This document shows, one piece after another, positions 3,218 to 35,806 of a stretch of DNA of 64,000 nucleotides (the first letter of the stretch is position 1; each line of letters starts with the position of its first letter). A model generated the notes under the pieces. It was not told the origin of the DNA. It ran no database searches and saw only the letters and a list, made by a program, of their open reading frames with translations. The stretch is from Acidobacteriota bacterium (lineage in GTDB: Bacteria; Acidobacteriota; UBA6911), in NCBI GenBank assembly GCA_035506515.1, contig DATJPG010000072.1, forward strand, positions 2,353 to 66,352, given 5' to 3'. A program made the translations under genes and the position numbers.

Positions 3218-4206
3218 AAATTCAAACGCTGGGAGAGTTGGAAGATATCCTGCGGAACGGTACATTGCGCGTCTGTCTGGTAGTGGGACCGGAACTGTAC
3301 TTGTGCCAGTTGGCGCTTGATCTCGTCAAACGCACGGTCGTGGCAGAGGATGCTTTTGCTTTCGATTTTTCGGAATTCCGTGCGGGTGAAGATTCCGTCG
3401 ATCACATTGTCGAAGCGGCAAATACTTTTCCGATGATGTCCGGCAAAAGACTGGTGCTCGTCAGGGATGCCGATGATCTCCCCGACTCCGATCTGGAGAC
3501 GCTCCTGGACGCGTTGAACAGTTTGCCTTCGCGAAGCCTGCTGGTGTTCTTCGCGGAAGAATTCGACCACCGCAAAAAATTCTACCGGACCATGCAGGAC
3601 AAATACTGCGTTGCGGAGTTTCCGAAACTGAAGGGCGCGGCGCTGGAACAATGGGCCGCAGCCTATATTCGGCGGCAGGGTTTCCGGCTATCCTCAACTG
3701 CAATCAAAACAATTGCGGGATTGGCAGGTTCGGATTTGCAGATGCTTGCTGCAGAACTGGAAAAGCTGCTGTTGTACGCGGGAAAAGAAAAAGATATACC
3801 GGACAGCGCCGTAAACAATCTAATCAGCAGTAGCCGGCAGCAGGGGATCTTTGAGCTGATAAACGCCGTTGCGCAGGGAAGGCGGAATGACGCGCTGCGA
3901 TCGCTGGCGAATTTACTGGGGATGGGGGAACACCCGCTGGTAGTGGTCACAATGATGGCGCGGTACTGCCGGCAAACGCTTATAGCAAAGGATTGCCTGG
4001 CCAGGGGCGTGCAAGCGCGCGAGATCGCGGCGGCGGCGCAAATTCCGCCGTTTATGCTGGATCAATTCCTTCGCGAGGCGCGCGCGGCAGATATCGGAAA
4101 AACTCAGGAAATGCACTTGCATCTTGCCGACATCGATCGAAAGCTTAAGTCCTCATCCGCGGACGGACGCATCCTGCTCGAAAAGCTCATCTGCTCGCTG
4201 GTGTAG
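3214..4206 (+). CDS. holA: DNA polymerase III delta subunit
   Basis: GPELYL, PMMSGKRLVLV, ELEKLLLY, DRKLKSS; GTGA overlap with the lptE stop. Confidence 0.88.
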   Translation: MKIQTLGELEDILRNGTLRVCLVVGPELYLCQLALDLVKRTVVAEDAFAFDFSEFRAGEDSVDHIVEAANTFPMMSGKRLVLVRDADDLPDSDLETLLDALNSLPSRSLLVFFAEEFDHRKKFYRTMQDKYCVAEFPKLKGAALEQWAAAYIRRQGFRLSSTAIKTIAGLAGSDLQMLAAELEKLLLYAGKEKDIPDSAVNNLISSSRQQGIFELINAVAQGRRNDALRSLANLLGMGEHPLVVVTMMARYCRQTLIAKDCLARGVQAREIAAAAQIPPFMLDQFLREARAADIGKTQEMHLHLADIDRKLKSSSADGRILLEKLICSLV

Positions 4207-33258: not shown

Positions 33259-34311
33259 GTGCCGCGAAATACCAAACGACGAAGGTTGACGGAATTCAGC
33301 AGTTCTGCCGGTTGAGCGAGCAAAATGAGTCCGGCGGTGCTGGATCGGATTTTGTCAAAACTCCCGCGCCAGGAAGACGATCGTCTGCTTGTCGGGTTCA
33401 GGAATAAGGATGATGCCGGAGTCTACCTGCTTCACGAAGGCTTGGCCCTGGTTCAAACGACGGATTTCTTCACGCCGATTATCGACGACCCCTATCAGTT
33501 CGGACAGATCGCCGCCGCCAATACCCTTTCGGATGTATATGCAATGGGCGGCCGCCCCTTGACGGCTCTCTCCATCGTCTGCTATCCGGAAAATGGCGAT
33601 TTGGAAGCACTGGAACGGATTTTGATTGGCGGCCTGGACAAGATGATTGAAGCGCAGTGTACCGTTGTAGGCGGCCACATGGTACGCGACGAGGAGATCA
33701 AATTCGGTTACGCTGTGACCGGAACAATCGACCCCGCTTCCATCTGGGCTAATGCAGGCGCGCAACCGGGGGATGCACTCCTTCTGACCAAACCATTGGG
33801 CACCGGCGTTATTTCAACCGCCATACGCGCCGGCAAGGCGAAGCCTGAATGGGCCGATATGGCCGCACGCACCATGAGCCGTCTCAACAAAGATGCGGCG
33901 GTGGCGCTGATGTCCCTCGGCAGTGCGGTTCACTCCGTCACCGATATCACCGGATTCGGATTCCTGGGGCACGCCTGGGAAATGGCGAGTGCGAGCTGCG
34001 TCAGCCTCCGGTTGGACAGTCGTGCTTTTGAACCGCTCGATGGCGCCATGGAATGCATACGCAACGGCTTTCTAGCCGGTGGGTTGAAAAAGAACCGGGA
34101 ATTCGTCGGAGACTGTGCCGTTTTCGCGCAAGGCATCTCGTTAGAAATGCAGCAACTCCTATTTGATCCTCAAACATCCGGAGGGTTGCTGGCAGCAATC
34201 CAGCCGGACTCGGCCCAGCGCGCCCGGGAGTTGCTGATTCAGGCAGGTTGCCGTGCCATGCAGGTCGGCGAAGTCGTAGGCAAAACATCCCCACTCATCT
34301 CCGTTCGCTAG
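33259..34311 (+). CDS. selD: Selenide, water dikinase; selenocysteine-containing (Sec19, TGA 33313-33315), 350 aa
   Basis: Reading through the TGA gives MPRNTKRRRLTEFSSSAG-U-ASKMSPAVL, matching the RLT...G-[C/U]-x2-K active-site loop. Also DDAGV, TTDFF, SDVYAMGG, GGH, DITGFG, DPQTSGGLL. GTG start with a GCAGGA RBS. Confidence 0.92.
33329..33345 (+). promoter_or_regulatory. Candidate bacterial SECIS stem-loop
   Basis: GTCCGGC-GGT-GCTGGAT stem; the G-containing apical loop starts 21 nt after the UGA. Confidence 0.55.
34264..34309 (+). repeat. selD 3'-end repeat copy A (the functional gene end)
   Basis: 37/46 nt identical to 34910-34955. Confidence 0.85.
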
Positions 34312-34330
34312 TACCTGACTTGACCAAATT

Positions 34331-34369
34331 AGTAACCACATTTTTTGCCGGATACTCCGATCAGCCCCG
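34331..34369 (+). repeat. 39-bp perfect direct repeat, copy 1
   Basis: AGTAACCACATTTTTTGCCGGATACTCCGATCAGCCCCG, identical at 34808-34846; weaker similarity extends about 18 nt to the left. Confidence 0.95.
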
Positions 34370-34427
34370 CAATTTCTTCCCTGTCCAGCACACGATCTAA
34401 TTGCTCGGCGGCTAAATGAGCCAAAAT

Positions 34428-34505
34428 TTCTTCGCGGTCTTTGCGGTCTTCGCGGTTTATTTCTTTCCAAAATTGAACCGCGAAGACCTCGAAGACCGCA
34501 AAGAA
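34428..34505. repeat. 30-bp imperfect inverted repeat built from 9-nt units
   Basis: Arms 34428-34457 and 34476-34505 pair at 27/30; unit CCGC(G/A)AAGA x3; 18-nt spacer. Confidence 0.9.
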
Positions 34506-34512
34506 GACATTT

Positions 34513-34790
34513 TTATGGGCTTCGTACTTGTCGTTCACGCCAGATTATGCGCTGGATTCCATCCCTGATGCGCGGGACCTTCCAGCTAATCAGGAAGTCG
34601 ATGGAACGCCCGCTCAGCTTGAGATAGGTAAGCAACTGGGCTCGATGGACAGGATGGATCGCATCGACAGTTTTGTTTTCGACGAGTATGCATTCATCAA
34701 CCAGGAAATCGGCCCGATATCCACAATCGAGCACGACCTCTTTGTAGCGGATAGGAACAGGATATTCCGTGTAGACATCCAGCGATAGAA
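34513..34790 (-). pseudogene. GxxExxY family (PD-(D/E)XK-like) protein, N-terminal third missing
   Basis: YPVPIRYKEVVLDCGYRADFLVDECILVENKTVDAIHPVHRAQLLTYLKLSG...RIRDGIQRI matches the family C-terminal part. The GxxExxY motif itself is absent, and the ORF-track N-terminus comes from the repeat. Confidence 0.78.
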
Positions 34791-34908
34791 CCTGATTTGA
34801 CTGAACAAGTAACCACATTTTTTGCCGGATACTCCGATCAGCCCCGGCCATTTATCAGCAATTTGTGAATTAATACCGAGATTTCCCCAAAAATCCGGTC
34901 AAGTCAGG
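34791..34908. mobile_element. 118-bp MITE/REP-like unit
   Basis: Left end CCTGATTTGACT (10/12 match to the TIR), right end GGTCAAGTCAGG; contains direct-repeat copy 2 (34808-34846). Confidence 0.5.
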
Positions 34909-34909
34909 G

Positions 34910-34955
34910 GTTGGTGAAGTCGTGGGCAAAGGCTCCCCGGTCATTTCCGTTCGCT
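34910..34955 (+). repeat. selD 3'-end repeat copy B (displaced gene fragment)
   Basis: Encodes VGEVVGKGSPVISVR versus VGEVVGKTSPLISVR in selD. Confidence 0.85.
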
Positions 34956-34977
34956 CGTATAGTGCGTCATTGATCCC

Positions 34978-35005
34978 TTGACATTTAGTCGGTGTGAATT
35001 AGATT
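34978..35005 (+). promoter_or_regulatory. Orphan sigma70-like promoter overlapped by a palindrome
   Basis: TTGACA-16 nt-TAGATT; GTGAAT-tag-ATTCAC (34994-35008) overlaps the -10. No + strand gene follows. Confidence 0.35.
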
Positions 35006-35080
35006 CACTCAAAGGCCTCAAAGACAAAAATATCCACAGATTTCACAGATTGAGGCATGGGGGCGGCGCCTGGAGTTGCC

Positions 35081-35806
35081 TCAATATCGGAAGGTGGCCT
35101 TTTTGATCTCTTTGCGGAAATCCAGGCCGCGAATTTCCACTTCCCTGCACATTTCATACAGGCGCGAACGCAAGCGCGTGCCGATGCGGTCTGTCAGAGA
35201 TTCCTCTCCCTGTTTCGAAGGAGTATCCAGGTAGTTGGACGTGAAGATCGTCAGCTTCTTATCGTTGTAGCGGCAGTTAATGATGTGGGCGATCGTGTCC
35301 CGTACCCATTCCGTCGGCTTGTTGGCACCGAGCTCGTCAAGGACCAGGACCCGCGCTTCCAGAACGGGCCTCAAAACTTCCAACTCGGACGTCTGCGAAA
35401 CGGAATTCCAGCTCGCCTGTATTTCCCTCAAGAGATCGCGGAAATCATAGAAAAGGCCTCCGTCTCCTTTTTCCATGACCACCTGTTTCAGCAGCGCAAC
35501 AGCCAGGTGCGTTTTTCCGACACCACAGTTGCCGAGGAACAGCAAGCCGACATCAATCTGCGGATACTTGTCCAGAAAGCGCTGGACGTAAATTTTGGCA
35601 TTCTTCTGCGACTCATGATTCGGCAGATAGGAGTCCAGATCACAGTGCTCATACCGTTTGGGAATTCTGGCTTCGGAAAGGAGCCGTTCCACTCGTGCCG
35701 ATCCAATACAGCTGCAGCGGCGCACTTTCGCGCCATTTTCCGCCGGCTCCCAGCCGGATCCGCTGCATTTGGGGCATATCTCCGGGATTGACGATTGCGT
35801 GCTCAT
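35081..35806 (-). CDS. DnaC/DnaI/IstB-family AAA+ ATPase with an N-terminal Cys cluster
   Basis: CPKC...CSC, Walker A GNCGVGKT, Walker B LVLDELG, FTSN, RLRSRL. Confidence 0.85.

Follow-up and report, generated by a model that had tools for sequence, protein, structure and literature searches.

Decayed GxxExxY nuclease cassettes meeting tail to head at a 9-nt-periodic hairpin, apparently members of a widespread undescribed gene-plus-hairpin family

The feature studied here, at 34428-34790 of the 64-kb stretch of DNA analysed (the window), is apparently a decayed member of a widespread and undescribed family of gene-plus-hairpin cassettes. As far as the sequence tells, its hairpin is a tail-to-head junction, in which the right arm of one GxxExxY cassette (copy 1) faces the left arm of another (copy 2) across 18 nt. 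We are highly confident of this local anatomy (Table 1). The family mechanism, by which the arms would be putative sites for the element's own nuclease and the whole unit selfish, is offered as tentative, and the complete account, joining dead tandem cassettes at this locus to a selfish nuclease-arm family, we regard as evenly poised.

Two arrays make up the hairpin, at 34429-34456 and 34477-34504, each of period 9 with 3.1 copies in Tandem Repeats Finder. Read on the gene strand, which is the minus strand (the ORF at 34513-34851 has its stop TAA at 34515-34513), the right-arm units are TCTTTGCGG / TCTTCGAGG / TCTTCGCGG (plus coordinates 34478-34504), standing 5-8 nt past the stop. GCGGTT closes this side and the 18-nt spacer follows, and then the left-arm units at 34429-34457, which agree with the family grammar given below as AAAC-CGCGAAG-AC-CGCAAAG-AC-CGCGAAG with period 9. 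In the repeat search the hairpin arms are 35 nt long and 86% complementary, and the 27-nt word core forms 24 pairs and one G-U. Folded as RNA, the hairpin reaches -51.6 kcal/mol against -23.7 ± 3.2 for shuffled sequences (z -8.8), and none of 200 shuffles is as good. The 18-mer arm word has four matches in the window against 0.1 expected, all inside the hairpin, and no second inverted repeat of at least 20 nt with comparable pairing was found elsewhere in the 64 kb. The original prediction had placed periodic inverted arrays past the GxxExxY stop and had read the outward arm as open in the frame N-R-E-D-R-K-D-R-E-E; the arrays are real, both with period 9 and in a strongly folded hairpin, and the open frame is found within a 69-aa ORF at 34329-34538. 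T-runs of 4-5 T lie ~3 nt beyond the long stem on both strands, and the hairpin was not among the calls of the consensus terminator scan. In addition, an Rfam search of the hairpin gave no family, with sub-threshold matches only, to generic microRNA-precursor hairpins; inspection revealed no attC core sites (RYYYAAC ... GTTRRRY) in or beside the arms, and no integrase-like ORF was found in 31-38 kb of the window.

Table 1. Features around the hairpin in the window (. = no strand assigned)
Feature	Position	Strand	Remarks
selD (selenide, water dikinase), intact, 328 aa	33325..34311	+	TIGR00476 at 1.2e-100; relatives also 328 aa
Present selD 3' end, copy a of the 51-nt direct repeat D2	34263..34313	+	80% identical to 34909-34959
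Terminal inverted repeat CCTGACTTGACC and D1 copy 1	34314..34369	.	Right end of the composite (gene strand)
Copy 2 5' fragment, leader and ~20 codons (ILAHLAAEQLDRVLDREEIA), broken at D1	34370..34426	-	82% nucleotide identity to L002 gene 1-57
L arm, left end of copy 2	34427..34457	-	AA CCGCGAAGA CCGCAAAGA CCGCGAAGA A; three CRCNRAG words after NAC
18-nt spacer between the abutted ends	34458..34475	.	Partial pairing, 5-nt loop; also in L001 and L073
R arm, right end of copy 1	34476..34507	-	Periodic array, repeat search
GxxExxY gene copy 1, 3' two-thirds	34513..34785	-	From 'LDVYTEYP' to stop; pseudogene
118-nt module with terminal inverted repeats CCTGATTTGACT ... GGTCAAGTCAGG	34791..34908	.	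Left end of the composite (gene strand); D1 copy 2 at 34783-34846
Original selD 3' end, displaced (copy a'; stop now TCG)	34909..34972	+	D2 repeat; native 13-nt spacer follows
Further ~107-nt insert	34973..35080	.	CTCAAAG x2, CACAGATT x2, small hairpin; missing from L204-L209
Convergent DnaC/IstB-like AAA+ ATPase gene	35081..35806	-	PF01695; NF005992

The gene next to the hairpin had been taken for a GxxExxY gene, and this is right in so far as the ORF passes the cut-offs of TIGR04256 (72.8 bits, cut-off 35) and of PF13366, PDDEXK_3 (65.4 bits, cut-off 22); it is, however, a truncated pseudogene, and the motif that gives the family its name is missing. The two matches cover only profile positions 38-116 of 116 and 39-117 of 117, respectively, so the GxxExxY motif with its N-terminal catalytic Glu is absent. 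Copy 1 retains D, ExK and QxxxY in the form of YRADFLV, LVENK and AQLLTYL, and compared with the proteins P0003-P0020 it has neither a start codon nor ~35 conserved codons (RHIV...GPGLLESVY...GLRG). The first 22 codons of the ORF come from an unrelated 64-nt repeat, D1, with 89% identity between its copies and an identical 38-nt core; D1 shows no sequence similarity to the GxxExxY gene, and on this ground its origin as a diverged piece of that gene was rejected. The homology search returned two truncated, near-identical proteins and dozens of full-length relatives. Among them, P0003-P0020 are 80-89% identical to copy 1 over 76% of the query, and the full-length relatives read ...LNREDREDREEKILAHLAAEQLDSVMDREEVARHIVDSAVAIHTALGPGLLESVYRRCLMYELGLRGLDVYAEYPIPIRYKEVV... 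Past the second arm, 58 nt encode a leader and N-terminus as in P0003 (...LNREDREDREEKILAHLAAEQLDSVMDREEVARHIV...), with protein matches to P0003, P0006 and P0011. Because the second arm is thus followed by a gene 5' fragment, we take the hairpin for the junction of two elements. A single gene enclosed by its own two arms is not what stands here, as copy 1 has only a right arm and copy 2 only a left one. The original prediction had seen, on the gene strand, one unit closing with its right end and a second opening with its left, and this reading proves correct, with the leader and N-terminus of the relatives found in the 58 nt downstream. Both cassette copies are evidently dead, copy 1 being without its leader, its left arm and its first ~55 codons, while copy 2 ends after ~20.

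The two copies lie in a composite of 595 bp (34314-34908) with 12-13-bp terminal inverted repeats, CCTGACTTGACC being found at 34314 on the plus strand and at 34897-34908 on the minus strand. Altogether the gap between selD and the dnaC-like gene is 769 nt in the window, and comprises the composite, a displaced selD tail with its native spacer, and the further insert of ~107 nt. In five relatives (L204, L205/L206, L207 and L208/L209) the same junction is empty; their SelD is 83-87% identical to that of the window, and the selD stop stands 13-14 nt from the convergent IstB/DnaC-like stop. The comparison shows an insertion confined to this lineage, at a site that the relatives keep tight. The predicted insertion polymorphism therefore exists, with a filled site in the window and empty sites in five relatives, but the arms, which had been expected to bound the insert, do not do so here: it ends at the CCTGACTTGACC 12-13-bp terminal repeat and a 51-nt duplication of selD. 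No short target-site duplication was found around the terminal-repeat element, either in the window or in the related locus L073; instead, the end of selD stands twice in the window as a 51-nt direct repeat, 80% identical. The two copies sit directly outside both composite terminal repeats, and six of their ten differences are at third codon positions. Since the downstream copy retains the native 13-nt spacer, it is read as the displaced original selD end; the spacer, TATAGTGCGTCAT, matches TAAAAGCGATCAT at the L204 empty site. The working selD end would then either have come in with the insertion or have resulted from it. A distant donor for the displaced tail was considered and rejected, as both copies end in ...ISVR, which is absent from 30 relatives among the matches listed. 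In L203, which has the closest SelD (94% identical), a third and unrelated sequence follows the selD stop (3988-4070), and because this locus differs yet again, the selD 3' flank appears to be a variable hot spot in the clade. The ~107-nt insert has periodic words of its own, CTCAAAGGC CTCAAAGAC and then CCACAGATT TCACAGATT, and a hairpin with 16-nt arms at 35042-35092 overlaps the stop of the dnaC-like gene.

Metagenome contigs were scanned for the arm word, giving at least 120 loci, several of which belong to the same cassette subfamily and allow the local history to be ordered. L073 has a leader, a left arm, the gene with an internal deletion, a right arm, the spacer, a left arm and a 5' fragment broken at D1. 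It is bounded by the same 12-13-bp terminal inverted repeats, CCTGACTTGACCG ... CGGTCAAGTCAGG, its flanking DNA differs from that of the window, and the succession of 5' fragment, D1 and terminal repeat is common to both. As L073 has this right half beside a nearly complete first copy, the right half should predate the 5' loss of copy 1. In L028 and L070 the 118-nt module with its terminal repeats is followed by a leader and a left arm; because TTCTAT runs into the leader in these two loci, the left break of copy 1 in the window is best explained as a plain deletion. The 118-nt module itself is found again, 83-89% identical, next to cassettes of this subfamily in L028, L070 and L089 and is split around a cassette in L073, and its contexts in L028, L070, L073, L089 and L108 have different flanks. 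On the whole, the window is read as a tandem cassette dimer within a terminal-repeat element, probably reduced by two deletions. Derived junctions are shared in different contexts, a sign that cassettes already defective were copied elsewhere and so propagated. The unit shared between contexts ends at the CCTGACTTGACC repeats, and for this reason the arms may not be the mobility ends in this Acidobacterial subfamily; what actually moves here may be the outer vehicle bounded by the terminal repeats.

Several further observations concern these loci. The module with CCTGACTTGACCG ends is MITE-like and lies at 34791-34908 in the window, at 2634-2750 in L028, at 441-560 in L070 and at 89-209 in L089; its D1 half looks like a separate insertion of ~72 nt flanked by ATAAATG when L028 and L070 are compared with L073 and L108. 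The same internal deletion junction of ~141 nt (..GGTGCCTGATG|CATGTGATCC..) is present in L028 at ~2968 and, as reverse complement, in L073 at ~908, with different left flanks. L001, an independent assembly of a close relative, is identical to the window from the dnaC-like gene via the 3' fragment, the right arm and the spacer to the left arm. Within 5414-5838 of L001 the match ends precisely where the left arm has its inner edge, and in place of the selD side there follow the region upstream of a gene for a Tat-signal 4Fe-4S protein and the beginning of that gene; either a rearrangement through the arm or a chimeric assembly would account for this.

Beyond this locus, the arms were studied around 80 GxxExxY genes taken from genome assemblies that represent many phyla of Bacteria and two lineages of Archaea, 30 diverse relatives being aligned. 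For each gene, the 200 nt before it were compared with the 200 nt after it and the best inverted repeat was scored, and 2488 same-spaced positions in the same loci served as controls. A score of at least 12 is reached by 92% of the GxxExxY genes versus 2.5% of the control positions, and one of at least 16 by 72% versus 0.28%. The statement of the original prediction that periodic triplet arms bracket GxxExxY genes thus holds in this independent sample of 80 genomes; the arms are not special to the anaerobes that it had named. From Acidobacteriota to Methanosarcinales, 64 of 79 arms have three words, and the spacing is 8-9 nt in 128 of 149 intervals. The words have the form CRCNRAG (CGCAAAG, CACAGAG, CGCAGAG and others), the outermost following TNAC, and the purine-rich array is upstream in 45 cassettes, downstream in 6 and mixed in 15. 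The arm word of a cassette's own genome recurs 30 times in the flanks versus 3.5 for words of other genomes (~9-fold), and these recurrences are gene-less hairpins of both topologies. Junction-type hairpins, with right arm, spacer and left arm, adjoin the intact gene downstream in 9 and upstream in 5 of 66 cassettes. No direct repeat of at least 6 nt was found outside the arms in the 66 cassettes, that is, no target-site duplication, and a further inverted repeat outside the arms is present in 4 of 65, three of them being additional periodic arms.

Among the 120 arm-word loci, all eight GxxExxY matches are bracketed by arms, short hairpins (~38) outnumber gene-bearing loci (~9), and a deletion series of 300, 190 and 107 nt leads towards the gene-less hairpins. 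Of the elements with 60-240 nt between the arms, only L070, L073 and L108 have a GxxExxY remnant, and most have none. L049, L050, L067, L104, L111 and L122 have the same arm words with ~100 nt between them and no detected GxxExxY remnant, and may be a separate non-coding family. Same-family hairpins flank an ordinary epimerase gene in L022. In L091 (5.3 kb), at least six of them separate a nucleotidyltransferase/HEPN pair, a Uma2-family endonuclease gene and a GxxExxY remnant, a layout that resembles a cassette array. As L022 and L091 show, the hairpins can also stand where there is no nuclease gene. In wetland metagenome contigs, the summed word depth is 130-360 in the arm region versus 4-14 in the unique flanks, which fits many copies in the community. 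These Logan contigs of public runs break at repeats, where depth is readable and joints of excision or circles are not informative; joints that 'go back 79' turned out to be other copies of left arm, loop and right arm. For further pairs of filled and empty sites, a megablast of a Nostoc cassette versus the PLSDB plasmids gave no match.

The AlphaFold model of GxxExxY has a pLDDT of 96, and its best folds in the PDB are Cas4 (SSO0001, 4ic1; Pcal_0546, 4r5q) and lambda-type exonucleases (3sz4), with TM 0.45-0.57; at the sequence level no PDB match was found for the protein. The columns E, D, ExK and QxxxY are invariant in the alignment of the 30 relatives, and they fit a predicted active RecB/Cas4-like nuclease core. 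We propose that the intact unit would be a selfish element consisting of a gene for a ~125-aa Cas4/RecB-like PD-(D/E)XK nuclease between inverted ends, each end having three 7-nt words (CRCNRAG) about one helical turn apart. The words may serve as tandem DNA binding sites for the nuclease of the element, much like the multi-site ends of Mu and Tn7 in miniature. New copies would insert beside existing ends and so give tail-to-head junctions such as the hairpin of the window, spreading possibly via a circular or tandem-dimer intermediate, and internal deletion would remove the gene, with the copies persisting as gene-less hairpins. That the nuclease drives the mobility of the cassette, one of the two roles offered for it in the original prediction, is something we infer. 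The general form of the proposal, namely that GxxExxY proteins are trans-acting nucleases of pan-prokaryotic miniature elements that multiply beside ends and decay to gene-less periodic hairpins, is to our mind somewhat short of an even chance. The relic in the window would today be at most a structural or terminator-like hairpin between convergent genes.

Other explanations have to be weighed against this one. The arms might be repeats of the REP/REPIN or MITE type moved by an unrelated transposase (a RAYT, or one acting on the CCTGACTTGACC ends), with GxxExxY as a passenger or homing gene. The terminal repeats that locally bound the shared unit would suit such an origin, as would the excess of gene-less loci, and the arms could provide the homology for homing-type copying into empty hairpins. 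We nevertheless consider it unlikely. Conservation across many phyla extends to the gene and its arm grammar but stops short of the outer terminal repeat; no arm is a palindrome by itself or has the GTAG signature of REP; and GxxExxY is the only protein consistently associated. It is less likely still that a circular intermediate, with its ends joined via the 18-nt spacer, was opened within the gene and integrated at D1, duplicating D1. Both fragments do abut a D1 copy, they are non-overlapping with 105 nt missing between them, the abutted outer ends have the geometry of an insertion-sequence circle junction, and the hairpins of right arm, spacer and left arm beside intact genes occur in other phyla. 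But L073 has a nearly complete first copy together with the same right arm, spacer, left arm and 5' fragment at D1, and with the left break after TTCTAT a plain deletion, two deletions in a tandem dimer suffice.

Two readings keep the hairpin at the level of RNA or transcription, and to each we give a low probability. Hairpins of the REP kind are known to terminate transcription or to stabilise mRNA, and the hairpin of the window could be an ordinary intrinsic bidirectional terminator that has no relation to mobility, located as it is between convergent transcription units with an A-run and short T-runs flanking the stem. Several points speak against this: the consensus scan makes no call, its 35-nt arms of three 9-nt units are the sole such arms in 64 kb, the same arm word is found in at least 120 metagenome loci, the gene 5' fragment past the second arm speaks for a two-element junction, and in the relatives a spacer of 13 nt suffices, with no hairpin in it. 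The arms might otherwise pair over a long range in the transcript, with the mRNA inside the stem as in the ORF-bearing intervening sequences of 23S rRNA, and serve processing by RNase III or the control of translation; the cassettes would then have spread only by recombination. They are indeed close to the ORF (medians ~24 nt upstream of the match and ~20 nt downstream), the left arm is often read within annotated N-termini, and a metatranscriptome contig covers a related copy. The mismatches between arms on the coding strand, however, are 78 G-U versus 92 A-C (p = 0.32), and with no excess of G-U they argue against a selected RNA stem and favour a role at the DNA level. Moreover, gene-less hairpins in both topologies stand on either side of unrelated genes, a stem would not require the conserved grammar of three words at helical spacing, and no Rfam family matches.

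The matter is of interest because very many proteins belong to PF13366/TIGR04256, for whose function the superfamily survey of 2012 enters no more than 'unknown' (PMC3424549). The periodic arms are not described in the literature that we found mentioning GxxExxY or PDDEXK_3. If the arms are the cis sites of the nuclease, a whole class of periodic intergenic hairpins of bacteria and archaea would be explained, a transposase-free, nuclease-based movement of DNA would be added to the known ways, and a compact sequence-specific DNA-binding nuclease module would become available. To this the present locus contributes a conserved end-to-end junction, a clean filled/empty pair, and defective copies that were evidently copied to new sites.

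Among known systems, REP/REPIN-RAYT (PMC3116915) is alike in having a small gene between inverted, genome-specific repeats and many intergenic gene-less hairpins, which cluster past stop codons. Unlike there, the gene of the cassette encodes a ~125-aa PD-(D/E)XK (Cas4/RecB-like) protein and not a Y1 HUH transposase, the arm consists of three tandem 7-nt words whereas REP is one imperfect palindrome with GTAG, and the grammar of the cassette is conserved across phyla. The ends of Mu (L1-L3/R1-R3) and of Tn7 contain several directly repeated protein-binding sites that are inverted between the ends, TnsA of Tn7 is a PD-(D/E)XK nuclease, so that such a nuclease can belong to a transposition machine, and in the circle or tandem-dimer junctions of IS911 and IS30 the outer ends are abutted with a short spacer. 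The cassettes share with these the multi-site inverted ends and, in the hairpin of the window, the abutted ends with a short spacer; they differ in having words of 7 nt at 8-9-nt spacing in an element of ~0.5 kb, without DDE transposase, ATPase or target-site duplication. Integron cassettes are also small promoter-less genes, each with an imperfect hairpin (attC) that lies where two cassette ends meet, and the array of L091, with hairpins between toxin-antitoxin-type genes, is similar in this respect; here, however, RYYYAAC/GTTRRRY cores and a nearby IntI are missing, each arm is a periodic array of words, and the gene that keeps recurring is that of the nuclease itself. In the ORF-bearing intervening sequences of 23S rRNA genes (Leptospira, Coxiella), a small ORF likewise lies within a long inverted repeat, but the element of the window is between selD and the dnaC-like gene, not in an rRNA gene, the cassette arms have no wobble signature, and gene-less copies are dispersed. 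Finally, GxxExxY comprises the minimal core only, with no Fe-S cluster domain and no CRISPR context, and in this it is unlike Cas4 and the lambda exonucleases, which nevertheless are its best structural matches and have E, D, ExK and QxxxY in common with it.
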